In this document: in pieces, positions 1 through 54,954 of the stretch
Numbering within the stretch: position 1 is the stretch's first letter
How the letters are laid out: the number at the start of each line of letters is the position of its first letter
Assembly: GCF_003790525.1 (NCBI RefSeq)
Contig: NZ_CP033635.1
DNA length: 64,000 nucleotides
Strand: one strand, 5' to 3'
DNA from: Escherichia coli
GTDB lineage: Bacteria; Pseudomonadota; Gammaproteobacteria; Enterobacterales; Enterobacteriaceae
Made by a program: the position numbers and the translations under genes
Notes under the pieces: model-generated
The model's database searches: none
What the model saw: the letters and a program-made list of their open reading frames with translations, nothing else
Told to the model about the DNA's origin: nothing

Positions 1-2309
<2,309 letters not shown>

Positions 2310-2401
2310 ACAACGCCGAAGATGTTTTGGCGGAAGAGAGAAGATTTTCAGCCTGATACAGATTAAATCAGAACGCAGAAGCGGTCTGATGAAACAGAAT
2401 T

Positions 2402-2521
2402 TGCCTGGCGGCCGTAGCGCGGTGGTCCCACCTGACCCCATGCCGAACTCAGAAGTGAAACGCCGTAGCGCCGATGGTAGTGTGGGGTCTCCCCATGCGA
2501 GAGTAGGGAACTGCCAGGCAT
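2402..2521 (+). rRNA. rrfG: 5S ribosomal RNA
   Basis: 120-nt sequence TGCCTGGCGGCCGTAGCGCGGTGGTCCCACCTGACCCCATGCCGAACTCAGAAGTGAAACGCCGTAGCGCCGATGGTAGTGTGGGGTCTCCCCATGCGAGAGTAGGGAACTGCCAGGCAT matches E. coli 5S rRNA; follows the 23S 3' end after a ~92-nt spacer. Confidence 0.97.
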
Positions 2522-2533
2522 CAAATTAAGCAG

Positions 2534-2561
2534 AAGGCCATCCGTCAGGATGGCCTTTTTG
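2534..2561 (+). terminator. rrn operon rho-independent terminator
   Basis: AGGCCATCC-GTCA-GGATGGCCT hairpin followed by TTTTTG, immediately after the 5S rRNA. Confidence 0.85.
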
Positions 2562-2580
2562 CATTGGTGCAGAAAAAAAT

Positions 2581-2612
2581 GCCTGATGCGATGCTGCGCG
2601 TCTTATACTCCC
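2581..2612. repeat. degenerate REP-like sequence
   Basis: GCCTGATGCGATGCTGCGCGTCTTATAC resembles the 5' two-thirds of the REP consensus (GCCTGATGCGACGCT...CGCGTCTTATCAGGCC) but lacks the 3' arm. Confidence 0.3.
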
Positions 2613-2843
2613 ACATATGCCAGATTCAGCAACGGATACGGTTTCCCCAACTTGCCTACTTCCATACGTGTCCTCCTTACCAGAAATTTATCCTTAAGCT
2701 CCTCAATAACCATTTTCCTGCTAACTAAATTCATGGTTAAGGTTGCATAATGATACGCAACAAATGTATAACATTTTTTTACCAAAAAAAATAAACAACA
2801 GCGACTGACAAAAGCATCGGATTACGGCAGGAGACATAATGGC

Positions 2844-4142
2844 ATGGCTGAAAGTACTGTAACGGCAGACAGCAAACTGACAAGTAGTGATACTCGTCGC
2901 CGCATTTGGGCGATTGTGGGGGCCTCTTCAGGTAATCTGGTCGAGTGGTTCGATTTCTATGTCTACTCGTTCTGTTCACTCTACTTTGCCCACATCTTCT
3001 TCCCTTCCGGGAACACGACGACTCAACTACTACAAACAGCAGGTGTTTTTGCTGCGGGATTTCTGATGCGCCCAATAGGCGGTTGGCTATTTGGCCGCAT
3101 AGCCGATAAACATGGTCGCAAAAAATCGATGCTATTATCGGTGTGTATGATGTGTTTCGGCTCACTGGTTATCGCCTGTTTGCCAGGCTACGAAACAATC
3201 GGTACCTGGGCTCCGGCATTATTGCTTCTTGCTCGTTTATTCCAGGGATTATCCGTTGGCGGAGAATATGGCACCAGCGCCACCTATATGAGTGAAGTTG
3301 CCGTTGAAGGGCGCAAAGGTTTTTACGCATCATTTCAGTATGTGACGTTGATCGGCGGGCAACTGCTAGCTCTACTGGTTGTCGTGGTTTTACAACACAC
3401 CATGGAAGACGCTGCACTCAGAGAGTGGGGATGGCGTATTCCTTTCGCGTTAGGAGCTGTGTTAGCTGTTGTGGCGTTGTGGTTACGTCGTCAGTTAGAT
3501 GAAACTTCACAACAAGAAACGCGCGCTTTAAAAGAAGCTGGATCTCTGAAAGGATTATGGCGCAATCGCCGTGCATTCATCATGGTTCTCGGTTTTACCG
3601 CTGCGGGCTCCCTTTGTTTCTATACCTTCACCACTTATATGCAGAAGTATCTGGTAAATACTGCGGGAATGCATGCCAACGTGGCGAGTGGCATTATGAC
3701 TGCCGCATTGTTTGTATTCATGCTTATTCAACCACTCATTGGCGCGCTGTCGGATAAGATTGGTCGCCGTACCTCAATGTTATGTTTCGGTTCGCTGGCA
3801 GCCATTTTTACCGTTCCTATTCTCTCAGCATTGCAGAACGTTTCCTCGCCTTATGCCGCTTTTGGTCTGGTGATGTGCGCCCTGCTGATAGTGAGTTTTT
3901 ATACTTCAATCAGTGGAATACTGAAGGCTGAGATGTTCCCGGCACAGGTTCGCGCATTAGGCGTTGGTCTGTCATATGCGGTCGCCAATGCTATATTTGG
4001 TGGGTCGGCGGAGTACGTAGCGTTGTCGCTGAAATCAATAGGAATGGAAACAGCCTTCTTCTGGTATGTGACCTTGATGGCCGTGGTGGCGTTTCTGGTT
4101 TCACTAACATTGCACCGTAAAGGAAAAGGGATGCGGCTTTAG
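2844..4142 (+). CDS. kgtP: alpha-ketoglutarate:H+ symporter (MFS)
   Basis: 432-aa [46 protein letters not shown]...; multi-pass membrane protein of the sugar-transporter MFS type; length and N-terminus match KgtP. Confidence 0.95.
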
Positions 4143-4462
4143 TGACGAGTCAGTTGCCAGACGGTATAGCCGGTGCTTGCACCGGCGATATCCCAGGCAA
4201 AATCCTTCCAGCTCCAGCCGCTCCCCTCAGGGCGGCTATCCCAAAGCTCTTTTGACGCCCCCAGACTGACAGAGAACATCAATCCAAACATGGCACTGCG
4301 ATCCCGGCTCATCCCCTGATGCTGTGCATATTCATTTCCGGCGGCGGAAAGCATCGCCGAGGCGATAAAGTGTTGAGCTTTATCCTGCCCGCTCCAGCTA
4401 TCGTTAGCCATATGGCTGCATCCAGAAAGTAACAATAGCGAGCAGACAAAAAGAATACGCAA
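4139..4462 (-). CDS. yfiM: small lipoprotein of unknown function
   Basis: ORF-track ORF is 114 aa (4139-4483). I favour the in-frame TTG 7 codons in (107 aa), because the pssA terminator hairpin at 4472-4503 overlaps the longer start. Signal peptide with lipobox LLSGC. Convergent with kgtP, overlapping its 3' end by 4 bp. Confidence 0.8.
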
Positions 4463-4471
4463 AACGTGGCC

Positions 4472-4503
4472 TCCAAAAAACAAACCCCGTACAGGACGGG
4501 GTT
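4472..4503 (-). terminator. rho-independent terminator downstream of pssA
   Basis: On the minus strand AACCCCGTcctgtACGGGGTT hairpin followed by TGTTTTTTGG; lies 5 nt after the pssA stop. Confidence 0.7.
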
Positions 4504-4507
4504 GTGA

Positions 4508-5863
4508 TTACAGGATGCGGCTAATTAATCGGTCGATGCGGATACGGCGCAAACGACGGATGAGTTTACGAACCTTCACCGGATAATCGGCAATACTTTG
4601 CAGATCGCGATAGTGCTTAACGATGGTGGTATGCTCGCGGATCAGCTCCAGTTCTTTCTCTCGCTGTGGCGCAAGCTCCAGTTGCGGATCGTGGATCAAA
4701 ATGGCGTTTTCCAGATCCAGACGCCAGGCGCGCGGGTTCAGGTTATTACCGGTGATCAACATCCACTTATCATCAACCCACATCCCTTTCAGGTGATAGG
4801 TGTTGTCGTCATCTTTCCATAACCGAACCACTAATTGGTCAGTATTGACGTAATACTGCAAACGGCTCAGGAAACGACGCAGATTGATCTCATAGAGATA
4901 AGGCAATGCGCCAATTATCTTGAAAGGTTCATCTTCCGGAATGTAGAAGTCATTCGCGGTTTTATCACCAACAATAATTTCGACCTTTTTCCCTTCGCGC
5001 AGCAACTGGATAATATTGCGCACAAGGATTGCTGGCAGGTTGAAGTAAGGTGTGCAGATGGTTAGTTTCTGCTCGGCACAAGGCATAAGATGGAAAATAG
5101 TCTTGTTCAACAGACTCGATTTCCCCAGCCCCACTAGCGGCGTTACGGAAAGCTGATCGTTGTCGGCATCGCCCTGGAAATGATAAGCGGCATCACGCAG
5201 CTCCTGGCGGAACAGGCGAATGTCGTTCTTGATTTCCGGGCTTTTTGGCCGATTAACATCATCCAGACGATTAACGCCGCGGCCATTCATAATATTCTGT
5301 GTAACCCATTCAAACATAATGTCTGACATCTTACGGTTACGGATCAGATGATAACGGTCGTAGCGATATTTATCGTGCTGATGCAGGTAAACATCGTTCA
5401 GGCTGGCACCGCTATAAAGTACGCTATCGTCGATGATAAAGCCTTTAAAGTGCAGAACACCAAGGGCTTCACGGGTATTGATTGGAACGCCATAAACCGG
5501 AACATCTACGCCCGGATTTTCCTGCGCCATGCGGCAGTACCAGTCAGCGTTAGTGTTAGATGCCGCAGCGCCAATGCGTCCACGTTGTGCACGATGCCAG
5601 TCGACCAGCACCCGCACATCCAGTTCCGGACGCTGCCTTTTAGCCTCATACAACGCGTTCAGAATGCCTTTGCCACCGTCATCCTGTTCGAGATACAGGG
5701 CGACAATGCAAATGCGCTGCTTCGCGCTGGCTATTTTTTCCAGCAGCGTCTCCCGGAAGTCGGCGGGAGCGTAAAAGAAATCGACATCATCAACTGATTG
5801 AGAAATCTTGGGTAGTTGGGCAAGGTGTTGTTGATGTTTATTACGCTTAAATTTTGACAACAT
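4508..5863 (-). CDS. pssA: CDP-diacylglycerol-serine O-phosphatidyltransferase (phosphatidylserine synthase)
   Basis: 451 aa from the second Met of the 452-aa ORF (MLSKFKRNKHQQHLAQLPKISQ...); two HxK-type phospholipase-D-like segments (LHFKGFIID..., HLKGMWVDD...). Confidence 0.95.
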   Translation of the reverse strand: MLSKFKRNKHQQHLAQLPKISQSVDDVDFFYAPADFRETLLEKIASAKQRICIVALYLEQDDGGKGILNALYEAKRQRPELDVRVLVDWHRAQRGRIGAAASNTNADWYCRMAQENPGVDVPVYGVPINTREALGVLHFKGFIIDDSVLYSGASLNDVYLHQHDKYRYDRYHLIRNRKMSDIMFEWVTQNIMNGRGVNRLDDVNRPKSPEIKNDIRLFRQELRDAAYHFQGDADNDQLSVTPLVGLGKSSLLNKTIFHLMPCAEQKLTICTPYFNLPAILVRNIIQLLREGKKVEIIVGDKTANDFYIPEDEPFKIIGALPYLYEINLRRFLSRLQYYVNTDQLVVRLWKDDDNTYHLKGMWVDDKWMLITGNNLNPRAWRLDLENAILIHDPQLELAPQREKELELIREHTTIVKHYRDLQSIADYPVKVRKLIRRLRRIRIDRLISRIL

Positions 5864-18002: not shown

Positions 18003-18248
18003 TTAATTTACTAAACATGGTTTGGTCAGCATAGCATCATGTTGTGCGAATAAACACCTGCTATTTTAATATTTGTTACAGTTGCTAAACACGCTGACGC
18101 AGGGCGGCGAGAAAAAGAGAAGTTACTGGCTGGTGGAGGATTAGGTGGTGAAATAAAAAGGCCGTTGGGTTACTCTTCAGGCAGTTAAATGGGCATTTCT
18201 ACACAGATAATGCGATGTTCAGATTCTGTAGACTTATAATGATAGATA

Positions 18249-44243: not shown

Positions 44244-45437
44244 TCAAATCTGCCGTAACTGCGCCTCAACATACAAATAGCCAATTCCCAGCACCTGCTG
44301 TGCGCGGCTTAATTGCCCAAAGCCAATTTGCGTCGCTTTCACGCTCGGTCCTTCGTCGCGGTCGAACGGGTTAAATCCCGTCTGGCGAATAATGGTATTA
44401 AGCCAGTTCTCACCAAAGGCACAACTGCGACCGTACAACCAAATCTGATTAATATTGAGGATGTTGAGGAAGTTATACAGACTCAAACCAATGGCGTTGG
44501 CAGAGCGATCAACCCAACTGGTGATCCACGGTTCTCCACTCTGCCAGGCAGCGATTAACTGCGCGGTAGTCAGTTTTTCAGGATCAAGCTGAGTATTAAC
44601 CGGTTGTGATTTTAGCCATACCCGCGCCTGTTTTTTTAATGCGCTTAACGAGGCGACGGTTTCCAGGCAGCCGTAACGCCCGCAGTCGCAGACGACGCCA
44701 TCCGGATTAACGATGGTGTGACCAATTTGCCCGCTACCATACAAACTGCCGCGATAAATTTGCTCGTTAATCACGAACGACGAGCCAATGCCGTAATCAA
44801 CGTTGATCACGCAGAAATCCCGTTCCTGCGAATTATTTTGCCATTTCTCCGCCAGCGCCAGCATCACGCAGTCATTATCGACCATCACCCGAATGCCGAG
44901 CTTCTCTTCCAGCAGATACTTTACCTCAACCGGCGTTGTCCACGGCGCTTGCGGCATGGTTTGCGACACGCCAGTCACCGGATCAACCTGACCGTGGATT
45001 GCCAGCGCCAGGTTGATGGTACGGTCCGGCCACAATTTACGGTGGCGATGCCAGCATTTTTCGATTTCGGACAGCAGCGCCTGCGGCGTCGGTGCATCAA
45101 TCTGTAAATACTCAAATTCACCTTTCGGACTTAAACAGGCGTTAGCGACCTGACACTCAATACTGGTGGGCGTCACGTTCAGGCACAGCGTCCAGTCACC
45201 TTCCGGCGCAATCAGCCATGTACCGCTACTATGCCCGCGCGTCTGGCTTTCATCGTCGATATTTACCACCCGTTTTTCGCTTTCCAGTTCCTGCAAAATA
45301 TTACTGACTGCCGGAATCGAAATTTGCGCCAGCCGGGCCAGCGTTGATTTATTGGCGCGCTTTTGCCGGTACAGCAGTTCCAGAATCACGCATTTGTTAT
45401 GGTGGCGAATCTGTTGATTATTAATGCAGGCTCTCAT
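44244..45437 (-). CDS. yphH: ROK/NagC-family transcriptional regulator (uncharacterised)
   Basis: 397 aa from the ATG at 45437 (the ORF track uses a GTG two codons upstream); N-terminal HTH (KSTLARLAQISIPAVSNILQELE) plus ROK sugar-kinase-like domain with CxCGxxGC zinc motif (CDCGRYGCLE). Confidence 0.85.
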   Translation of the reverse strand: MRACINNQQIRHHNKCVILELLYRQKRANKSTLARLAQISIPAVSNILQELESEKRVVNIDDESQTRGHSSGTWLIAPEGDWTLCLNVTPTSIECQVANACLSPKGEFEYLQIDAPTPQALLSEIEKCWHRHRKLWPDRTINLALAIHGQVDPVTGVSQTMPQAPWTTPVEVKYLLEEKLGIRVMVDNDCVMLALAEKWQNNSQERDFCVINVDYGIGSSFVINEQIYRGSLYGSGQIGHTIVNPDGVVCDCGRYGCLETVASLSALKKQARVWLKSQPVNTQLDPEKLTTAQLIAAWQSGEPWITSWVDRSANAIGLSLYNFLNILNINQIWLYGRSCAFGENWLNTIIRQTGFNPFDRDEGPSVKATQIGFGQLSRAQQVLGIGYLYVEAQLRQI

Positions 45438-45554
45438 CTTCACTAAACCTTGTTTAGTTAATTGCGTGATTATTCCGCGAAAACATTGCCAGATTGTTCA
45501 ATACACTGCCACAAATCTTTTAATTCAGTATGTCTTGTTAATATTGAGGGCACC

Positions 45555-48500
45555 ATGACTCCAGTAAAAGTGTGGCAAGAGCGCGTTGAGATCCCGACCT
45601 ATGAAACCGGGCCGCAGGATATACATCCCATGTTCCTGGAAAATCGCGTTTATCAGGGATCGTCCGGCGCGGTTTATCCCTACGGCGTGACCGATACGCT
45701 GAGCGAGCAGAAAACCCTGAAATCCTGGCAGGCGGTGTGGCTGGAAAATGACTACATCAAAGTGATGATCCTGCCGGAACTGGGCGGTCGGGTGCATCGC
45801 GCATGGGATAAAGTGAAACAGCGCGATTTTGTCTATCACAATGAAGTCATTAAACCTGCGCTGGTGGGGCTGCTGGGACCGTGGATCTCCGGCGGGATTG
45901 AGTTTAACTGGCCGCAACACCATCGCCCGACCACCTTTATGCCCGTTGATTTCACCCTCGAAGCCCATGACGACGGCGCACAGACGGTGTGGGTCGGCGA
46001 AACGGAGCCGATGCACGGTTTACAGGTGATGACAGGTTTCACCCTGCGTCCTGACCGGGCGGCGCTGGAAATCGCCAGTCGCGTCTATAACGGCAACGCC
46101 ACGCCGCGTCATTTCTTGTGGTGGGCCAACCCGGCAGTGAAAGGGGGTGAAGGGCATCAGAGCGTCTTCCCGCCGGATGTAACGGCGGTGTTTGATCACG
46201 GCAAACGGGCCGTCTCCGCTTTCCCCATCGCCACCGGCACTTACTACAAAGTGGACTACTCCGCCGGAGTGGACATTTCTCGCTATAAAAATGTGCCCGT
46301 TCCAACCTCATATATGGCTGAAAAATCACAGTACGATTTTGTTGGCGCGTGGTGTCACGATGAAGATGGTGGTTTGCTACACGTTGCCAACCACCATATT
46401 GCGCCAGGTAAAAAACAGTGGAGCTGGGGACACAGTGAATTTGGCCAGGCGTGGGATAAGAGCCTGACTGACAATAACGGCCCGTATATCGAACTGATGA
46501 CCGGTATTTTTGCCGATAACCAGCCTGATTTTACCTGGCTTGATGCTTACGAGGAGAAGCGTTTCGAGCAGTATTTCCTGCCTTATCATTCTCTGGGCAT
46601 GGTGCAAAATGCCTCCCGCGATGCGGTGATAAAACTCCAGCGTAGTGAGCGGGGGATTGAGTGGGGGCTGTATGCCATCTCTCCGTTGAACGGATACCGC
46701 CTGGCGATCCGCGAAATCGGCAAATGCAACGCGTTGCTCGATGATGCCGTGGCCCTGACACCAGCGACCGCCATCCAGGGCGTGTTGCACGGTATCAATC
46801 CTGACAGACTGACCATTGAGCTCTCCGATGCCGACGGCAATATTGTACTGAGTTATCATGAACATCAGCCGCAAGCGTTGCCGTTGCCGGACGTCGCCAA
46901 AGCGCCACTGTCAGCACAAGACATTACCAGTACAGATGAAGCCTGGTTTATCGGTCAGCATCTGGAGCAATATCATCACGCCAGCCGTTCACCGTTCGAT
47001 TACTACCTGCGCGGCGTGGCGCTGGATCCGCTGGATTATCGCTGTAACCTGGCGCTGGCGATGCTGGAATATAACCGCGCCGATTTCCCGCAAGCGGTGG
47101 CGTATGCCACTCAGGCGCTGAAACGCGCACATGCGCTGAACAAAAATCCGCAGTGCGGACAGGCCAGTTTGATTCGCGCCAGTGCTTACGAACGTCAGGG
47201 ACAATATCAACAAGCCGAAGAGGATTTCTGGCGGGCGGTCTGGAGCGGCAATAGTAAAGCAGGTGGCTATTATGGTCTGGCACGACTGGCGGCGCGTAAT
47301 GGTCACTTCGATGCTGGTCTGGATTTTTGCCAACAAAGTCTTCGCGCCTGCCCAACCAATCAGGAAGTGCTTTGCCTGCATAATCTGCTGCTGGTGTTAA
47401 GTGGTCGTCAGGACAACGCGCGTTTGCAGCGCGAGAAACTGCTGCGCGATTATCCGCTGAACGCCACTCTGTGGTGGCTGAACTGGTTCGATGGTCGTAG
47501 CGAATCAGCCCTCGCGCAGTGGCGCGGTCTGTGTCAGGGACGCGACGTTAACGCCCTGATGACCGCCGGGCAACTGATTAACTGGGGAATGCCTACCCTG
47601 GCGGCAGAGATGCTGAACGCACTGGACTGCCAGCGCACGCTGCCGCTTTATCTGCAGGCGAGTTTATTGCCGAAAGCCGAACGCGGCGAACTGGTCGCAA
47701 AAGCCATTGATGTCTTCCCGCAGTTTGTCCGTTTCCCGAATACGCTGGAAGAAGTGGCGGCGCTGGAGAGTATTGAAGAGTGCTGGTTTGCCCGTCATTT
47801 ATTGGCCTGCTTCTACTACAACAAGCGTAGCTACGGCAAAGCCATTGCCTTATGGCAACGTTGCGTAGAGATGTCGCCGGAGTTTGCCGACGGCTGGCGC
47901 GGGTTAGCGATCCATGCGTGGAATAAGCAACACGATTATGAGCTGGCCGCGCGTTATCTTGATAATGCTTATCAGCTTGCGCCGCAGGATGCACGTCTGC
48001 TTTTCGAACGGGATTTGCTGGATAAGTTAAGTGGAGCCACACCGGAGAAACGACTGGCGCGTCTGGAAAATAATCTGGAAATTGCGCTGAAACGCGACGA
48101 CATGACCGCAGAACTGCTCAATTTGTGGCATCTCACGGGTCAGGCAGACAAAGCGGCGGACATTCTCGCCACGCGCAAATTCCACCCGTGGGAAGGCGGG
48201 GAAGGGAAGATCACCAGTCAGTTTATCCTCAACCAGTTATTACGCGCCTGGCAGCATCTTGATGCCAGAGAGCCGCAGCAGGCCAGCGAACTGCTTCATG
48301 CCGCGCTGCATTATCCGGAGAATTTAAGCGAAGGCCGTTTACCGGGGCAAACTGATAACGACATCTGGTTCTGGCAGGCGATATGCGCCAACGCGCAGGG
48401 AGATGAAACTGAAGCGATGCGTTGTTTACGTCTGGCGGCGACTGGCGATCGCACCATTAACATTCACAGTTATTACAACGATCAGCCGGTTGATTATCTC

Positions 48501-48836
48501 TTCTGGCAAGGAATGGCGCTGCGACTGCTGGGCGAACAACAAATCGCACAGCAACTGTTTAGTGAAATGAAACAGTGGGCGCAAGAGATGGCGAAAACCA
48601 GTATTGAGGCGGATTTCTTTGCTGTTTCACAACCTGACCTGTTGTCGCTGTATGGCGATTTACAACAGCAGCATAAAGAAAAATGCCTGATGGTGGCGAT
48701 GCTGGCGTCCGCGGGACTCGGGGAGGTTGCGCACTATGAATCTGCTCGCGCTGAATTGACGGCGATTAATCCGGCCTGGCCGAAAGCGGCATTATTCACC
48801 ACTGTGATGCCTTTTATTTTTAACTACGTTCACTAA
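45555..48836 (+). CDS. yphG: large uncharacterised protein, N-terminal DUF5107-type domain plus C-terminal TPR-like repeats
   Basis: 1093 aa from MTPVKVWQERVEIPTYETGPQD... (ATG at 45555 preceded by GAGGG); C-terminal half shows repeated helical TPR-like motifs; no signal peptide. ORF-track ORF extends 31 codons further upstream. Confidence 0.85.
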   Translation: MTPVKVWQERVEIPTYETGPQDIHPMFLENRVYQGSSGAVYPYGVTDTLSEQKTLKSWQAVWLENDYIKVMILPELGGRVHRAWDKVKQRDFVYHNEVIKPALVGLLGPWISGGIEFNWPQHHRPTTFMPVDFTLEAHDDGAQTVWVGETEPMHGLQVMTGFTLRPDRAALEIASRVYNGNATPRHFLWWANPAVKGGEGHQSVFPPDVTAVFDHGKRAVSAFPIATGTYYKVDYSAGVDISRYKNVPVPTSYMAEKSQYDFVGAWCHDEDGGLLHVANHHIAPGKKQWSWGHSEFGQAWDKSLTDNNGPYIELMTGIFADNQPDFTWLDAYEEKRFEQYFLPYHSLGMVQNASRDAVIKLQRSERGIEWGLYAISPLNGYRLAIREIGKCNALLDDAVALTPATAIQGVLHGINPDRLTIELSDADGNIVLSYHEHQPQALPLPDVAKAPLSAQDITSTDEAWFIGQHLEQYHHASRSPFDYYLRGVALDPLDYRCNLALAMLEYNRADFPQAVAYATQALKRAHALNKNPQCGQASLIRASAYERQGQYQQAEEDFWRAVWSGNSKAGGYYGLARLAARNGHFDAGLDFCQQSLRACPTNQEVLCLHNLLLVLSGRQDNARLQREKLLRDYPLNATLWWLNWFDGRSESALAQWRGLCQGRDVNALMTAGQLINWGMPTLAAEMLNALDCQRTLPLYLQASLLPKAERGELVAKAIDVFPQFVRFPNTLEEVAALESIEECWFARHLLACFYYNKRSYGKAIALWQRCVEMSPEFADGWRGLAIHAWNKQHDYELAARYLDNAYQLAPQDARLLFERDLLDKLSGATPEKRLARLENNLEIALKRDDMTAELLNLWHLTGQADKAADILATRKFHPWEGGEGKITSQFILNQLLRAWQHLDAREPQQASELLHAALHYPENLSEGRLPGQTDNDIWFWQAICANAQGDETEAMRCLRLAATGDRTINIHSYYNDQPVDYLFWQGMALRLLGEQQIAQQLFSEMKQWAQEMAKTSIEADFFAVSQPDLLSLYGDLQQQHKEKCLMVAMLASAGLGEVAHYESARAELTAINPAWPKAALFTTVMPFIFNYVH

Positions 48837-48932
48837 ACCCTATTAACTGTAATATTTGAGCGGCACGCGCTGCCGCTCACGCTCAAATAATTAAAATAAG
48901 CCGTTGTAAATAAAAACCCTACAGGAGGCACT

Positions 48933-49916
48933 ATGCCTAAAAAAATGAGAACAACCCGTAATCTATTATTAATGGCTACGCTATTAGGTAGCGCACTATT
49001 TGCCAGGGCTGCGGATAAAGAAATGACCATTGGCGCAATATACCTTGATACCCAGGGATATTACGCTGGCGTGCGTCAGGGTGTTCAGGATGCGGCAAAA
49101 GATTCTTCAGTACAGGTACAGTTAATTGAAACTAACGCCCAGGGTGATATTTCGAAAGAAAGTACCTTTGTTGATACCCTCGTGGCGCGTAATGTCGATG
49201 CCATTATTTTATCGGCAGTGTCTGAAAATGGCAGTAGCCGTACCGTTCGTCGCGCCAGTGAAGCGGGTATTCCGGTGATTTGCTACAACACCTGTATTAA
49301 TCAAAAAGGCGTCGATAAATATGTCTCGGCGTATCTGGTCGGCGATCCGCTGGAATTTGGTAAAAAACTGGGTAATGCTGCCGCCGATTATTTTATTGCC
49401 AACAAAATTGACCAGCCGAAAATTGCCGTCATCAATTGCGAAGCCTTTGAAGTTTGTGTGCAGCGACGTAAAGGGTTTGAAGAAGTATTAAAAGCCCGCG
49501 TTCCCGGCGCGCAAATTGTCGCTAATCAGGAAGGGACTGTTTTAGATAAAGCGATTTCCGTTGGTGAAAAACTAATTATCTCCAGGCCGGATCTCAACGC
49601 CATTATGGGTGAATCGGGCGGAGCGACACTCGGCGCGGTAAAAGCGGTACGTAATCAAAATCAGGCCGGAAAAATTGCTGTTTTCGGTTCGGATATGACC
49701 ACTGAAATTGCTCAGGAGCTGGAAAACAATCAGGTGCTGAAAGCGGTAGTGGATATTTCCGGCAAGAAAATGGGCAATGCTGTTTTCGCGCAAACATTGA
49801 AGGTTATCAATAAACAAGCCGACGGTGAAAAAGTGATTCAGGTGCCTATCGATCTCTATACCAAAACGGAAGACGGTAAACAGTGGCTGGCAACGCACGT
49901 TGATGGTCTGCCCTAA
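48933..49916 (+). CDS. yphF: ABC transporter periplasmic sugar-binding protein (uncharacterised)
   Basis: 327-aa ORF with signal peptide (MPKKMRTTRNLLLMATLLGSALFARA); periplasmic-binding-protein type I fold typical of monosaccharide ABC systems. Confidence 0.88.
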   Translation: MPKKMRTTRNLLLMATLLGSALFARAADKEMTIGAIYLDTQGYYAGVRQGVQDAAKDSSVQVQLIETNAQGDISKESTFVDTLVARNVDAIILSAVSENGSSRTVRRASEAGIPVICYNTCINQKGVDKYVSAYLVGDPLEFGKKLGNAAADYFIANKIDQPKIAVINCEAFEVCVQRRKGFEEVLKARVPGAQIVANQEGTVLDKAISVGEKLIISRPDLNAIMGESGGATLGAVKAVRNQNQAGKIAVFGSDMTTEIAQELENNQVLKAVVDISGKKMGNAVFAQTLKVINKQADGEKVIQVPIDLYTKTEDGKQWLATHVDGLP

Positions 49917-49938
49917 TCGCTGATTCGCAGAGGTCCCT

Positions 49939-51450
49939 ATGTTCACGGCAACAGAGGCAGTCCCGGTAGCAAAAGTGGTGGCAGGAAATAAGCGTTATCC
50001 CGGCGTCGTTGCGTTGGATAACGTTAACTTCACGCTCAATAAAGGCGAAGTTCGTGCGCTGTTAGGCAAAAACGGCGCGGGCAAATCGACCCTCATTCGA
50101 ATGCTTACCGGTAGCGAACGTCCGGATAGCGGTGATATCTGGATTGGCGAGACGCGACTGGAAGGTGACGAAACTACGCTGACTCGCCGTGCCGCTGAAC
50201 TGGGGGTTCGTGCGGTTTATCAGGAATTAAGTCTGGTGGAAGGGCTGACGGTGGCGGAAAACCTCTGCCTCGGTCAGTGGCCCCGCCGCAACGGCATGAT
50301 TGATTACCTGCAAATGGCGCAGGATGCCCAACGTTGCTTACAGGCGCTGGGCGTTGACGTTAGCCCTGAACAACTTGTTTCAACGCTAAGCCCGGCGCAA
50401 AAGCAACTGGTGGAAATTGCGCGGGTGATGAAGGGCGAGCCGCGCGTGGTCATTCTTGATGAACCCACCAGCTCGCTTGCCAGTGCGGAAGTTGAACTGG
50501 TGATCAGCGCGGTGAAAAAGATGTCGGCACTGGGCGTGGCGGTGATTTATGTCAGCCACCGGATGGAAGAAATTCGCCGCATTGCCTCCTGTGCCACCGT
50601 TATGCGCGATGGTCAGGTGGCGGGCGATGTGATGCTCGAAAACACCTCTACGCATCATATTGTGTCGCTAATGCTCGGGTGCGATCACGTTGATATTGCG
50701 CCGGTTGCCCCTCAGGAAATTATGGATCAGGCCGTGCTGGAAGTCCGTGCGTTACGCCATAAGCCCAAGCTGGAGGATATCAGCTTTACGCTACGTCGCG
50801 GCGAAGTGCTCGGCATTGCTGGCCTGCTGGGGGCAGGGCGCAGTGAATTGTTGAAAGCCATAGTTGGGCTGGAGACGTATGAACAGGGCGAAATTGTTAT
50901 CAACGGCGAGAAAATCACGTGCCCCGATTACGGCGACATGCTGAAACGCGGCATTGGATATACGCCAGAAAACCGCAAAGAAGCGGGGATCATTCCCTGG
51001 CTGGGCGTTGACGAAAATACAGTGCTGACCAATCGGCAAAAAATCAGCGCCAACGGTGTGCTGCAATGGTCCACCATCCGCCGCCTGACCGAAGAGGTGA
51101 TGCAGCGGATGACGGTCAAGGCCGCCAGTAGCGAAACGCCCATCGGCACGCTTTCTGGCGGCAATCAGCAAAAAGTGGTGATCGGTCGTTGGGTCTATGC
51201 CGCCAGCCAGATTTTGTTGCTCGACGAGCCAACGCGTGGCGTCGATATCGAAGCCAAACAGCAGATTTACCGTATTGTCCGCGAGCTGGCTGCCGAAGGA
51301 AAAAGCGTGGTGTTTATCTCCAGTGAAGTGGAGGAGTTACCGTTGGTGTGCGACCGCATTCTGTTGTTACAGCACGGTACGTTCTCGCAGGAGTTTCACT
51401 CTCCGGTCAATGTGGATGAGCTGATGTCCGCCATTCTGTCTGTGCACTGA
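49939..51450 (+). CDS. yphE: ABC transporter ATP-binding protein, tandem ATPase domains (uncharacterised)
   Basis: 503-aa ORF with two Walker A motifs (GKNGAGKST; GLLGAGRSEL) and two signature motifs (LSPAQKQL; LSGGNQQK), as in ribose/xylose-type importers. Confidence 0.9.
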   Translation: MFTATEAVPVAKVVAGNKRYPGVVALDNVNFTLNKGEVRALLGKNGAGKSTLIRMLTGSERPDSGDIWIGETRLEGDETTLTRRAAELGVRAVYQELSLVEGLTVAENLCLGQWPRRNGMIDYLQMAQDAQRCLQALGVDVSPEQLVSTLSPAQKQLVEIARVMKGEPRVVILDEPTSSLASAEVELVISAVKKMSALGVAVIYVSHRMEEIRRIASCATVMRDGQVAGDVMLENTSTHHIVSLMLGCDHVDIAPVAPQEIMDQAVLEVRALRHKPKLEDISFTLRRGEVLGIAGLLGAGRSELLKAIVGLETYEQGEIVINGEKITCPDYGDMLKRGIGYTPENRKEAGIIPWLGVDENTVLTNRQKISANGVLQWSTIRRLTEEVMQRMTVKAASSETPIGTLSGGNQQKVVIGRWVYAASQILLLDEPTRGVDIEAKQQIYRIVRELAAEGKSVVFISSEVEELPLVCDRILLLQHGTFSQEFHSPVNVDELMSAILSVH

Positions 51451-51474
51451 TGAATTTTACCGAGGAACCTGAAG

Positions 51475-52473
51475 ATGTCTGCTTCGTCATTACCATTGCC
51501 GCAGGGCAAGAGCGTCTCGCTCAAACAATTTGTCAGTCGCCATATTAATGAGATCGGTTTGCTGGTGGTGATTGCCATTTTGTATCTGGTCTTCTCCCTG
51601 AACGCGCCGGGTTTTATCTCATTGAATAACCAGATGAACGTGCTGCGTGATGCCGCCACCATTGGGATCGCCGCCTGGGCGATGACGCTGATTATTATCT
51701 CCGGTGAAATTGATGTCAGCGTTGGGCCGATGGTGGCTTTTGTCTCGGTGTGCCTGGCATTTTTGCTGCAATTTGACGTTCCGCTGGCGATTGCTTGTCT
51801 GCTGGTGTTGCTGTTAGGTGCGCTGATGGGAACGCTCGCCGGGGTGCTGCGCGGCGTGTTTAACGTGCCAAGTTTTGTTGCCACGCTGGGTTTATGGAGC
51901 GCCCTGCGCGGAATGGGGCTGTTTATGACGAACGCCTTGCCAGTGCCAATTAACGAAAACGAAGTGCTGGACTGGCTGGGCGGACAATTTCTCGGTGTGC
52001 CGGTATCCGCGCTGATCATGATGGTGTTATTTGCGCTGTTTGTGTTCATTAGCCGCAAAACCGCCTTCGGGCGCTCGGTTTTTGCTGTTGGCGGTAATGC
52101 CACTGCAGCGCAGTTGTGCGGTATTAACGTTCGTCGGGTACGCATTCTTATTTTTACCCTTTCGGGATTATTAGCGGCGGTGACCGGCATTTTGTTGGCG
52201 GCGCGCCTCGGTTCCGGTAACGCAGGTGCCGCAAACGGTCTGGAGTTTGACGTCATCGCCGCGGTCGTCGTCGGCGGTACGGCGCTTTCCGGTGGTCGCG
52301 GCTCGTTGTTCGGTACGCTGCTTGGCGTACTGGTGATTACGCTAATCGGTAACGGTCTGGTGCTGCTCGGGATTAACTCCTTTTTCCAGCAGGTGGTGCG
52401 CGGCGTCATCATCGTGGTGGCGGTGCTGGCGAATATCTTGCTGACCCAGCGTAGCAGTAAAGCGAAACGCTAA
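51475..52473 (+). CDS. yphD: ABC transporter permease (uncharacterised)
   Basis: 332-aa polytopic membrane protein of the RbsC/AraH permease family. Confidence 0.9.
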   Translation: MSASSLPLPQGKSVSLKQFVSRHINEIGLLVVIAILYLVFSLNAPGFISLNNQMNVLRDAATIGIAAWAMTLIIISGEIDVSVGPMVAFVSVCLAFLLQFDVPLAIACLLVLLLGALMGTLAGVLRGVFNVPSFVATLGLWSALRGMGLFMTNALPVPINENEVLDWLGGQFLGVPVSALIMMVLFALFVFISRKTAFGRSVFAVGGNATAAQLCGINVRRVRILIFTLSGLLAAVTGILLAARLGSGNAGAANGLEFDVIAAVVVGGTALSGGRGSLFGTLLGVLVITLIGNGLVLLGINSFFQQVVRGVIIVVAVLANILLTQRSSKAKR

Positions 52474-52538
52474 ACCTTAACGCCCCTGGCGCGGGTGCGG
52501 CAGGGATGAAAATTAATCGTATTGTTAATGAGGGATTT

Positions 52539-53600
52539 ATGAAAACGATGCTGGCAGCTTATTTACCAGGAAATTCGACCGTCGATCTGCGGGAAGTTGC
52601 GGTGCCGACGCCGGGTATTAACCAGGTACTGATCAAAATGAAATCCTCCGGAATTTGCGGAAGCGATGTCCACTATATCTACCACCAGCACCGCGCTACG
52701 GCGGCGGCACCCGATAAACCGTTATACCAGGGATTTATCAACGGTCATGAACCGTGCGGGCAAATTGTGGCGATGGGGCAAGGCTGCCGCCATTTTAAAG
52801 AGGGCGACCGTGTGCTGGTGTATCACATTTCTGGCTGTGGTTTTTGCCCGAACTGCCGTCGTGGTTTTCCTATCTCTTGTACTGGCGAAGGAAAAGCGGC
52901 TTACGGCTGGCAGCGTGACGGCGGCCATGCTGAATACCTGCTGGCGGAAGAAAAAGATCTGATCCTCCTGCCGGATGCACTGAGTTACGAAGATGGTGCG
53001 TTTATCAGTTGCGGCGTTGGTACAGCGTATGAAGGGATTTTGCGCGGCGAAGTTTCCGGCAGTGATAACGTGCTGGTGGTCGGTCTGGGGCCGGTCGGCA
53101 TGATGGCGATGATGCTGGCAAAAGGTCGCGGTGCAAAAAGGATCATCGGCGTTGATATGTTGCCGGAACGTCTGGCGATGGCGAAACAGTTAGGAGTGAT
53201 GGATCACGGCTATTTAGCGACTACCGAAGGTCTGCCGCAGATAATCGCCGAACTCACTCACGGCGGCGCGGATGTTGCGCTTGATTGTTCCGGTAATGCC
53301 GCAGGTCGCTTACTGGCACTGCAATCCACCGCTGACTGGGGACGGGTGGTTTACATCGGGGAAACCGGAAAAGTGGAGTTCGAGGTTAGCGCTGATCTGA
53401 TGCATCATCAACGGCGGATTATTGGCTCCTGGGTGACCAGTCTGTTCCATATGGAAAAATGCGCCCACGATTTAACGGACTGGAAACTGTGGCCGCGTAA
53501 TGCCATTACCCATCGCTTCTCACTGGAACAGGCAGGAGATGCCTATGCGCTGATGGCGAGCGGCAAATGCGGGAAAGTTGTGATTAACTTCCCGGATTAA
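52539..53600 (+). CDS. yphC: zinc-dependent alcohol/polyol dehydrogenase (uncharacterised)
   Basis: 353 aa from MKTMLAAYLPGNSTVDLREV...; catalytic zinc motif GHEPCGQIVAMG, structural zinc cysteines (CGFCPNCRRG), Rossmann GLGPVG. Confidence 0.88.
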   Translation: MKTMLAAYLPGNSTVDLREVAVPTPGINQVLIKMKSSGICGSDVHYIYHQHRATAAAPDKPLYQGFINGHEPCGQIVAMGQGCRHFKEGDRVLVYHISGCGFCPNCRRGFPISCTGEGKAAYGWQRDGGHAEYLLAEEKDLILLPDALSYEDGAFISCGVGTAYEGILRGEVSGSDNVLVVGLGPVGMMAMMLAKGRGAKRIIGVDMLPERLAMAKQLGVMDHGYLATTEGLPQIIAELTHGGADVALDCSGNAAGRLLALQSTADWGRVVYIGETGKVEFEVSADLMHHQRRIIGSWVTSLFHMEKCAHDLTDWKLWPRNAITHRFSLEQAGDAYALMASGKCGKVVINFPD

Positions 53601-53611
53601 GGAGTTAGCGG

Positions 53612-54484
53612 ATGACCATCTATACCTTATCTCACGGGCCGCTAAAGCTGGACGTTTCTGACCGGGGCGGCGTCATCGAAGGCTTCTGGCGTGACGCGAC
53701 GCCGCTCTTACGTCCCGGTAAAAAAAGCGGTGTGGCAACCGATGCCTCTTGTTTTCCGCTGGTGCCGTTTGCAAACCGGGTGAGCGGCAATCGTTTTGTC
53801 TGGCAGGGGCGTGAGTATCAACTGCAACCGAATGTTGAGTGGGATGCGCATTATCTACACGGCGATGGCTGGTTGGGCGAGTGGCAATGTGTCTCGCGCA
53901 GCGATGATAGCTTGTGTCTGGTGTATGAACATCTCAGCGGTGTTTATCACTATCGGGTAAGCCAGGCATTTCATTTAACGGCGGATACGCTGACAGTGAC
54001 GCTCGCTGTCACCAATCAAGGGGCAGAGACGCTGCCATTTGGTACCGGCTGGCATCCTTATTTTCCGTTGTCGCCGCAAACGCGGATTCAGGCACAGGCG
54101 AGCGGTTACTGGCTGGAGCGGGAGCAGTGGCTGGCGGGTGAGTTTTGCGAGCAGCTACCGCAGGAACTGGATTTTAACCAGCTCACGCCGTTGCCGCGCC
54201 AGTGGGTAAACAATGGTTTTGCCGGATGGAATGGTAAGGCCCGCATCGAGCAGCCGCAGGAGGGTTATGCCATCATCATGGAAACGACGCGGCCTGCACC
54301 GTGTTATTTCATCTTTGTTTCCGACCCGGCGTTTGATAAAGGATATGCGTTTGATTTCTTCTGTCTGGAACCGATGAGCCATGCGCCAGATGATCATCAT
54401 CGCCCGGAAGGTGGTGATCTCATTGCGCTTGCACCAGGGGAATCAACAACTTCAGAGATGTCGTTGCGGGTTGCGTTACTGTAA
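53612..54484 (+). CDS. yphB: aldose 1-epimerase (mutarotase)-like protein (uncharacterised)
   Basis: 290-aa ORF; mutarotase-family features (…NQGAETLPFGTGWHPYFPL…, C-terminal FCLEPMS). Confidence 0.85.
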   Translation: MTIYTLSHGPLKLDVSDRGGVIEGFWRDATPLLRPGKKSGVATDASCFPLVPFANRVSGNRFVWQGREYQLQPNVEWDAHYLHGDGWLGEWQCVSRSDDSLCLVYEHLSGVYHYRVSQAFHLTADTLTVTLAVTNQGAETLPFGTGWHPYFPLSPQTRIQAQASGYWLEREQWLAGEFCEQLPQELDFNQLTPLPRQWVNNGFAGWNGKARIEQPQEGYAIIMETTRPAPCYFIFVSDPAFDKGYAFDFFCLEPMSHAPDDHHRPEGGDLIALAPGESTTSEMSLRVALL

Positions 54485-54492
54485 TTTATAAA

Positions 54493-54526
54493 ATGCCGGA
54501 TAAGGCGTTCACGCCGCATCCGGCAT
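54493..54526. repeat. REP element
   Basis: ATGCCGGATAAGGCGTTCACGCCGCATCCGGCAT palindrome between convergent yphB and yphA. Confidence 0.8.
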
Positions 54527-54531
54527 CTTTC

Positions 54532-54954
54532 CTAACGCCGATCGAGAGAAATCGCCCCCGGCCCGGTAATTGCCAACAGCAGGAATGCGCCAGCGATACT
54601 GACATTCTTCCAGAAATTAATCATATTTGGCCCAACCGCATCGCCGGTCATATCCCAGTAATGGTGACCAATTACCGCTGTACCCAGCGTGTAGAAAATA
54701 AACAGCACCGCCAGCGGACGGGTGAAAAAGCCAAGCACGATTAATATCGCGGCGGGCACTTCCATAACTACCGCAATAATCGCTGCCAGCATCGGCATTG
54801 GCGCGCCCAGCGAGGCCATATATTGGACCGTACCGTCAAAGCCCATCATTTTGGGAAAACCAAAAATAATGAAAATTAAGACCACGGCGATACGGGCAAT
54901 TAATAACAAAACGGGGCGTGCAGCACCAAAATCAAAATAACGTAGTGAGTTCAT
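54532..54954 (-). CDS. yphA: DoxX-family inner membrane protein (uncharacterised)
   Basis: 140 aa from [29 protein letters not shown]...; four predicted TM helices. Confidence 0.85.

Follow-up and report, generated by a model that had tools for sequence, protein, structure and literature searches.

The yph Locus and Its Genes

We analyzed the yph locus of Escherichia coli, which comprises eight contiguous genes at positions 44244–54954 of a 64,000-nucleotide stretch of contig NZ_CP033635.1 (assembly GCF_003790525.1; the whole of this stretch is referred to as the window). An initial annotation had described these genes as a unit resembling a sugar or polyol catabolic operon. The eight genes and their positions were borne out by the listing of open reading frames (ORFs) and by the RefSeq annotation of E. 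coli SMS-3-5, to which the region was 100% identical by megablast against complete E. coli genomes. The domain calls for the individual genes were also found to be correct in the NCBIfam, Pfam and PDB sequence searches on which the domain assignments of the Yph proteins in this study are based. The genes and other features of the locus are as follows:

44244–45437, minus strand: yphH, ROK family (annotation)
45442–45458: perfect palindrome ACTAAAC-CTT-GTTTAGT in the yphH-yphG spacer, candidate YphH operator
45460–45479: second conserved box, AATTGCGTGATTATTCCGCG (consensus ATTGCGTGATCATTGCGCA), a block of invariant columns in a five-genus alignment of the spacer
45555–48836, plus strand: yphG, protein of 1093 residues with DUF5107 and TPR regions
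48788–48879, plus strand: two hairpins at the yphG-yphF junction (minimum free energy −33.8 kcal/mol, z = −2.3)
48933–49916, plus strand: yphF, RbsB-type (CUT2) periplasmic binding protein
49939–51450, plus strand: yphE, tandem ABC ATPase of 503 residues
51475–52473, plus strand: yphD, RbsC/AraH-type permease
52506–53600, plus strand: yphC, Zn-dependent medium-chain (MDR) dehydrogenase
53612–54484, plus strand: yphB, aldose-1-epimerase family, the sequence of PDB 3NRE
54532–54954, minus strand: yphA, convergent gene for a DoxX membrane protein (annotation)

The chromosomal site of the locus is between glyA and hcaD. Of 5426 complete E. coli genomes, 5369 carried at least 80% of an 11.2-kb yph query, with an identity of at least 95% in all but one of these. 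As they are kept in nearly all complete genomes and match the RefSeq annotation, the yph ORFs are real, conserved genes and not chance ORFs. The spacers from yphF through yphB are only 11–32 bp long, consistent with a single operon, and that between yphG and yphF is 96 bp. An antisense ORF of 338 residues opposite yphD (51396–52412, minus strand), slightly longer than yphD itself, had no homology support and was taken as spurious. A search of the locus against Rfam gave no match.

The yphG gene is occasionally inactivated within E. coli. In strain SCPM-O-B-8794 it is split into ORFs of 841 and 244 residues (positions 2286–5660 of the region retrieved as L010), and truncated forms were identified in some E. 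coli strains (proteins P0002, P0028 and P0042).

The Importer, Dehydrogenase and Mutarotase-Like Proteins

Based on their sequences, YphF, YphE and YphD are predicted to form a CUT2 monosaccharide-type importer that consists of an RbsB-type binding protein, a fused tandem ATPase and an RbsC/AraH-type permease. YphF matched the NCBIfam models for AlsB, MglB, LsrB, RbsB, RhaS and YtfQ (E values 1e-11 to 1e-17), with scores below the equivalog cut-offs (64 bits versus 335 for AlsB and 59 versus 420 for MglB), and it also had a weak match to the rhizopine-binding protein model. Many ribose- and galactose-binding proteins in PDB matched YphF, the best match being 5hsg, whose title does not name a ligand. 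YphE aligned end to end with AraG, XylG, AlsA and MglA (E values 1e-122 to 1e-136), with all of its matches below the equivalog cut-offs (454 bits versus 689 for AraG), and YphD aligned with RbsC and AraH. The scores were below every cut-off for the substrate-defined CUT2 systems (ribose, allose, arabinose, xylose, galactose, galactofuranose and autoinducer-2). Because all these equivalog scores are far below the cut-offs, no Yph protein fits a known specificity, which places yph outside every substrate-defined CUT2 system.

Two published studies provide information on YphF. In an engineered strain, levoglucosan, compared with fructose, raised the amount of YphF protein 3- to 4.6-fold, and XylF, MalE, MglA and YtfQ rose along with it (PMC8753852). 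We read this increase as general catabolite derepression, and levoglucosan was rejected as a yph substrate since the joint rise of many catabolite-controlled transporters (xylF, malE, mglA, ytfQ) makes the response unspecific. In a study of uropathogenic E. coli (UPEC), yphF was chosen for single-gene deletion on the basis of transposon mutants that were defective in vivo or in vitro (PMC11032443).

YphC has the sequence features (ADH_N and Rossmann domains) of a Zn-dependent medium-chain dehydrogenase of the polyol/secondary-alcohol type. It had full-length matches to the Tdh and IolM-like models of NCBIfam at E values of 1e-50, below the cut-offs, and its PDB matches were xylitol, sorbitol and threonine dehydrogenases. 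YphB, residues 1–288 of which match the sequence of PDB 3NRE, can be assigned to the aldose-1-epimerase family on the basis of its fold and its predicted catalytic His/His/Glu residues, as the motifs LHGDGW, GWHPYF and CLEP align with those of GalM. Its score did not reach the GalM equivalog model and its sole NCBIfam match was a weak one, to PRK15172.

YphH and the Regulatory DNA

YphH has the predicted architecture of a ROK-family transcription factor, with an N-terminal helix-turn-helix and a ROK sugar-kinase-like domain for sugar binding, and is presumed to be the repressor of the divergent yphG operon. It matched the NagC and Mlc models with E values of 1e-31 to 1e-32 and 109–112 bits, versus cut-offs of 530–650; the alignment with Mlc covered residues 9–334 and that with NagC residues 118–342. 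Its PDB matches were Mlc and the ROK regulator Lmo0178. YphH has been named as the third, uncharacterized ROK repressor of E. coli, with a linker motif unlike the GR motif that other ROK clusters share (PMC4288165), and as of 2022 it was among the transcription factors of unknown function (PMC9308461).

The palindrome in the yphH-yphG spacer had a chance expectation of 0.13 matches in the window when two mismatches were allowed in the pattern search. The motif ACTAAAC-N3-GTTTAGT was conserved in the ROK-YphG spacers of Aeromonas, K. oxytoca, Serratia and Limnobaculum, and the conserved blocks of the five-genus spacer alignment were this palindrome and the box at 45460–45479. The palindrome is the obvious candidate for the YphH operator, and the adjacent box is a candidate for either a second operator half or an activator site. 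A CRP site at the box was rejected by eye, as the second half-site fits the consensus poorly. The only other match to the palindrome in the 64 kb was a copy with one mismatch, ACTAAACATGGTTTGGT, at 18010–18026, which is upstream of nadB, between nadB and rseD/rpoE, and is probably due to chance.

Of the two hairpins at the yphG-yphF junction, the first (48788–48821) is terminator-like with a T-run and lies within the last codons of yphG, and the second (48857–48879) has a GC-rich stem and lies in the spacer. They may represent an attenuator or a stability element for the downstream transporter mRNA, and might set the ratio of YphG to the transporter. At its other end, the yphG frame is open upstream to a TTG at 45462 (45462–45554), which would permit a protein of 1124 residues whose coding region overlaps the promoter/operator region. 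This extension is likely untranslated, as the N-termini of homologues favor the annotated ATG at 45555.

YphG Has a Predicted Mutarotase Fold and a TPR Solenoid

YphG had been described as a cytoplasmic protein with TPR-like repeats. The TPR assignment was confirmed, but the first 440 residues of the protein have an aldose-1-epimerase (mutarotase) fold in the predicted structure. YphG is arranged as a beta-sandwich (approximately residues 1–440), in which Pfam DUF5107 spans residues 39–324, followed by a TPR solenoid (approximately residues 460–1093). The AlphaFold model calculated with a 99-sequence alignment had a pLDDT of 96 and a pTM of 0.94; from 25 close homologues only, the N-terminal domain had a pLDDT below 50 and was unusable. 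The C-terminal 630 residues matched the TPR solenoids of APC subunits, OGT and PilF. Glycosidase entries with a sandwich like that of YphG reached scores of at most 16.6, and YphG is not a member of the glycoside hydrolases (GH) by similarity to any known GH catalytic domain. Searches with the mutarotase models of Pfam and NCBIfam, including PF01263, gave no match to YphG, and a Foldseek search of AFDB50 returned only unannotated DUF5107 or TPR proteins.

Across 99 homologues with identities down to 25%, E313 was the sole invariant acidic residue of YphG. It sits in the sequence IELMxGxxTDNQPDF, which we read as a likely counterpart of the GalM catalytic strand CLEPQxxPD. The motif GGxEFNWPQHHRP, H122/H123 and H215 were also conserved, as were two non-helical loops within the TPR part, FHPWEGGEG and NLGEG. 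The TPR solenoid may close over the sandwich, and together they may form the active site. The mutarotase fold of the model argues for chemistry at the anomeric center of a bound monosaccharide unit, irrespective of whether the enzyme would be an isomerase or a glycosidase.

YphG is approximately 40% identical over 1100 residues across phyla, and YphG-like proteins formed approximately 3900 clusters at 50% identity (E value 0.001 or better). The homologues at the loci whose neighbors were analyzed (see below) had no signal peptide, and YphG itself is predicted to be cytoplasmic. An extracytoplasmic subfamily of DUF5107-TPR proteins also exists, because a member with a predicted signal peptide is encoded in a Bacteroidota polysaccharide utilization locus (PUL; L090, 10001–13303) together with SusC/SusD, GH16, two sulfatases and beta-helix proteins. 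The content of this PUL suggests a sulfated galactan.

Related Cassettes Differ in Transporter and Accessory Enzymes

Homologues with 54–66% identity to YphG were identified in Aeromonas, K. oxytoca, Serratia and Limnobaculum. The contigs of these bacteria had a divergent ROK gene, the YphG homologue, an XylE-like MFS porter and a YphB-like gene, with no ABC importer and no dehydrogenase in the cassette. The same MFS-type layout without a dehydrogenase was found in most sister cassettes of Klebsiella, Citrobacter, Serratia, Aeromonas and Limnobaculum, and in K. oxytoca (L004) it occupies the same glyA-adjacent site as the yph genes of E. coli. Two Citrobacter loci, one with an ABC importer and a dehydrogenase (L022) and one with an MFS porter (L014), had the same flanking genes on both sides and are therefore alternative cassettes at one locus, and Enterobacter sp. 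BIGb0383 had both transporter types in one array. The distribution of ABC and MFS cassettes looks like replacement by recombination. Between cassette types (L014 versus L022, and L004 versus the window), YphG was approximately 54% and YphB approximately 31% identical, and the flanking DoxX protein was 85% identical.

In K. oxytoca the gene for this DoxX protein lies at the opposite end of the cassette, where glyA and the ROK gene flank it. Only some Enterobacteriaceae had a DoxX gene beside the cassette, at one end or the other, and most other loci had none. The convergent DoxX gene yphA is present as originally described; its association with the cassette and its membership of the functional unit are uncertain.

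To survey the neighborhood of YphG more widely, one genome per species was used to obtain 80 further loci, and the genes within four of a YphG homologue were counted in 82 loci (17 from Gammaproteobacteria, 35 from Bacteroidota, and 30 from Bacillota, Actinomycetota and others). The counts, in the order all loci; Gammaproteobacteria; Bacteroidota; Bacillota, Actinomycetota and others, were:

AraC-family regulator: 44/82; 0/17; 24/35; 20/30
ROK regulator: 15/82; 15/17 (divergent); 0/35; 0/30
XylE-like MFS porter: 43/82; 11/17; 31/35; 1/30
CUT2 ABC components: 7/82; 4/17; 0/35; 3/30
Any GH2, GH35, GH36 or GH97: 41/82; 3/17; 23/35; 15/30
Small mutarotase-like protein: 22/82; 13/17; 6/35; 3/30
Zn-dependent alcohol dehydrogenase (Zn-ADH): 4/82; 2/17; 0/35; 2/30

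A sugar porter, either MFS or CUT2 ABC, was near YphG in 48 of the 82 loci, and the MFS porters of Serratia and Bacteroidota were 42–59% identical. The mutarotase partners belonged to three subfamilies, namely YphB-like proteins in the Gammaproteobacteria (accompanying YphG in 13 of 17 loci), Leloir-type GalM in the Bacteroidota and DUF4432/Aldose_epim proteins in the Bacillota. Several loci of Clostridia and Bacteroidota had only a regulator, a transporter and YphG. Together, these data indicated a conserved core of a regulator, YphG and a transporter of the monosaccharide type, which a small mutarotase-like protein often accompanies. YphC and the ABC importer are lineage-specific, and YphG is the invariant, defining component across phyla. 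The carbohydrate part of the proposed sugar-or-polyol logic was upheld, but the weight it had placed on YphC and the ABC importer was not, as these are the least conserved parts.

The GH2 neighbors matched the NCBIfam model for a BT4151-type exo-beta-1,4-galactosidase, with one Mucilaginibacter protein scoring 1633 versus a cut-off of 1500. These enzymes were beside the YphG homologue in 35 of the 82 loci, a count that includes a second, c16-type GH2 cluster. Other neighbor clusters were a GH36 AgaA/AgaB-like alpha-galactosidase of approximately 740 residues and a GH35-like protein of approximately 780 residues, and further neighbors were a GH97-like retaining alpha-galactosidase, a MelB-type melibiose carrier and GH95. 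The GH2 proteins had signal peptides in the Bacteroidota and none in the Bacillota.

Two additional conserved neighbors were observed. One, a protein of approximately 742 residues in Mucilaginibacter and Chitinophaga, had no significant match in Pfam or NCBIfam and may be another glycan-active protein without an assignment. Its gene was found directly upstream of the MFS gene in L027 (6335–8563) and L058 (6320–8575), and directly upstream of the YphG homologue in L067 (7783–9969). The other, a protein of approximately 138 residues, is encoded directly 3' of the YphG homologue in a Candidatus Enterocloster metagenome-assembled genome (L030, 4013–4426) and in Porcincola intestinalis (L049, 11314–11733).

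A Proposed Role in the Use of Galactose-Like Compounds

Based on these analyses, we tentatively propose, at a little short of an even chance, that the yph genes encode a YphH-repressed system for the uptake and processing of a monosaccharide-sized, galacto-configured carbohydrate, with YphG as the catalyst. The galacto-configured class is favored because the neighbors of YphG in the Bacteroidota and Bacillota include galactosidase-family enzymes. The substrate would be D-galactose- or L-arabinopyranose-like, a derivative of either, or a small galactoside, and is probably galactose-like rather than a polyol.

In such a system, YphF, YphE and YphD would import the compound. YphG would then act at the anomeric or ring center of the sugar, or cleave a small glycoside, with the TPR loops closing the sandwich domain. 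Since there are loci in which a regulator, a transporter and YphG stand alone, YphG must by itself channel the imported compound into central metabolism, presumably in one cofactor-independent step whose product would enter ordinary pathways without a further dedicated enzyme. Galactofuranose-to-pyranose conversion, tagatose-galactose isomerization and lactone hydrolysis were each considered as this reaction, and there was no specific support for any of them. Because non-orthologous mutarotases have been recruited three times, we infer that the reaction involves a free aldose of defined anomer; YphB, with its family and conserved motifs, would equilibrate the anomers of the aldose that YphG uses or makes. 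YphC appears to be a lineage-specific accessory that, in the E. coli-type cassette only, would add an NAD(P)-linked oxidation or reduction and could thereby extend the range to a polyol or deal with an aglycone. YphH would bind the palindrome in the yphH-yphG spacer and be released by the sugar. The lack of signal peptides in the YphG homologues at these loci and their presence in the GH2 enzymes of the Bacteroidota fit a route in those bacteria of periplasmic release, import by the MFS porter and processing by a cytoplasmic YphG.

Several points weigh against this proposal. Our full-text searches on gene names and DUF5107 found no experiment that ties any yph gene to galactose or to another substrate. 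The galactose and arabinose pathways of E. coli are complete, so that YphG would be redundant on plain D-galactose or L-arabinose, which makes a derivative the probable substrate. Evidence from gene neighborhood is correlative, galactosidase neighbors are rare in the Gammaproteobacteria (3 of 17 loci), and the survey was based on crude ORF calling and BLAST clustering in which not every neighbor was annotated. As profile comparisons of YphG with YphB and GalM were not significant (hhalign E values 0.006–0.06), the kinship of YphG with mutarotases rests on structure, and the equivalence of catalytic residues in YphG and GalM is one of resemblance in fold and motif; the acid His of GalM (TNH motif) has no obvious counterpart in YphG. 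In addition, signal peptides were found in approximately 15–20% of diverse YphG family members, and the L090 PUL is a more natural setting for an enzyme that acts on glycans than for a monosaccharide isomerase.

These signal-peptide members and the L090 PUL keep alive a second interpretation, that YphG is a new cytoplasmic glycosidase, or another enzyme that cleaves glycosidic bonds, for galactosides small enough to fit monosaccharide-type carriers, such as galactosyl-glycerol, galactosyl-cyclitols or methyl-galactosides. YphB would anomerize the galactose released and YphC would oxidize the aglycone. This interpretation overlaps the proposal above, of which it is the most specific form, and as stated we consider it unlikely. 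The mutarotase partner of YphG parallels the known pairing of LacZ with GalM, and Mgl, a CUT2 system, is known to carry methyl- and glyceryl-galactosides; both points count in favor of this interpretation. In Bacilli, GH2 and GH35 enzymes are also encoded in the same operons as YphG, secreted members of its family occur in PULs, and YphG has many conserved acidic and aromatic residues. In the single paper on DUF5107 that we found, the domain is in an orthogroup of unknown function in phagotrophic stramenopiles, beside digestive enzymes (PMC8163842).

A polyol operon, in which YphDEF would import a polyol for oxidation by YphC and the resulting ketose or aldose would be processed by YphB and YphG, is to our minds similarly improbable. 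The resemblance of YphC to the xylitol and sorbitol dehydrogenases of PDB and to the IolM-like scyllo-inosose dehydrogenase of NCBIfam is what such an operon would have, as is the weak match of YphF to the rhizopine-binding protein model, and in two loci from Bacillota (L009 and L061) the gene for the YphG homologue is followed by a Zn-ADH gene. Against this, a Zn-ADH was near YphG in only 4 of the 82 loci and the sister cassette at the same site as yph lacks one. Because the dehydrogenase is rare and absent from the sister cassette, polyol logic is not the core of the system, although it may apply to the cassette of the E. coli type.

We regard it as very unlikely that YphG is not an enzyme and instead acts as a sugar-sensing scaffold or regulator, with a mutarotase-like ligand domain and TPR repeats that modulate a transporter or transcription factor. 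The partner regulators (ROK, AraC, LacI, DeoR) and transporters (MFS, CUT2, CUT1) vary and YphG is still approximately 40% identical. Its conservation is enzyme-like as well, in the invariant Glu, the His-rich motifs and the retained loops of the TPR region. The least probable reading is that yph is a cryptic or decaying remnant with no current function in E. coli; decades of work on K-12 have yielded no known phenotype and yphG is split or truncated in some strains, but the window carries all eight ORFs intact, the region is near-universal in complete genomes, YphF protein has been detected (PMC8753852), and yphF was picked for deletion in UPEC after mutant defects (PMC11032443).

To return to the galacto-configured proposal, it is possible, though we hold this a shade less firmly, that YphG founds a phylum-spanning enzyme family in which a mutarotase-fold catalytic domain is clamped by a TPR solenoid and which performs a hitherto unassigned step by which galactans, galactosides or a galactose derivative are used. 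That step would be either a new chemistry at the ring or anomeric center of a sugar or a new class of glycosidase.

Relationship to Known Systems and Significance

By its sequence, the yph locus represents a variant form of the E. coli CUT2 sugar operons. Similar to rbsDACBKR, alsBACEK, ytfQRT-yjfF and mglBAC with galM, it has an RbsB-type binding protein, a tandem ATPase, an RbsC-type permease and an adjacent repressor gene, and, as with RbsD in rbs and GalM in mgl/galM, there is an accessory enzyme for the sugar ring or anomer, YphB. Unlike the rbs, als, ytf and mgl operons, yph lacks any kinase or isomerase that belongs to a known pathway, and its defining enzyme is a 1093-residue DUF5107-TPR protein without a characterized relative. 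YphG also differs from GalM (PF01263) in having an extra beta-sandwich and the TPR solenoid of 630 residues, and it occurs beside ordinary mutarotases and so is not simply redundant with GalM-type enzymes. The PDB entry 5CD6 (BDI_1685 of Parabacteroides distasonis, “TPR-domain containing protein”) has approximately 580 residues, is 21% identical, has a short TPR part and has a title that gives no function. YphH resembles NagC and Mlc in family and architecture and in having a palindromic operator candidate in a divergent promoter region, whereas it falls far below the cut-offs of both models and has a different linker motif (PMC4288165). In the pectic-galactan and rhamnogalacturonan I genes of Bacteroides there is a GH2 of the BT4151 type; E. 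coli yph has no such glycosidase, and E. coli would use products freed by other organisms, or small galactosides.

Full-text searches on the yph gene names found no substrate or regulon, and literature searches on DUF5107/PF17128, BT4151 and 8U01 found no functional assignment. The carbohydrate-utilization-like character of the locus, and the absence of a substrate assignment from the literature found, agree with what the initial annotation had proposed; its interpretation was partly supported, being right in outline with the emphasis on the wrong genes. As the locus was already annotated, what is new is the narrowed substrate class and YphG as a widespread enzyme family without an assignment.

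The yph genes are part of the uncharacterized core genome of E. coli. If our inference holds, a screen for the substrate could be confined to a short list of small galactosides and galacto-configured sugars instead of covering all sugars and polyols, and YphG would become the focus in place of the transporter and dehydrogenase. Proteins of the YphG type are common, beside galactosidases, both among gut bacteria (Bacteroidota, Lachnospiraceae and bifidobacteria) and in soil Bacteroidota and Paenibacillus. The reaction of the YphG family, once assigned, would fill a gap in the breakdown of plant and algal galactans and in gut cross-feeding to E. coli. If YphG does represent a new enzyme family, the yph operon of E. 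coli would be a genetically tractable model for it.

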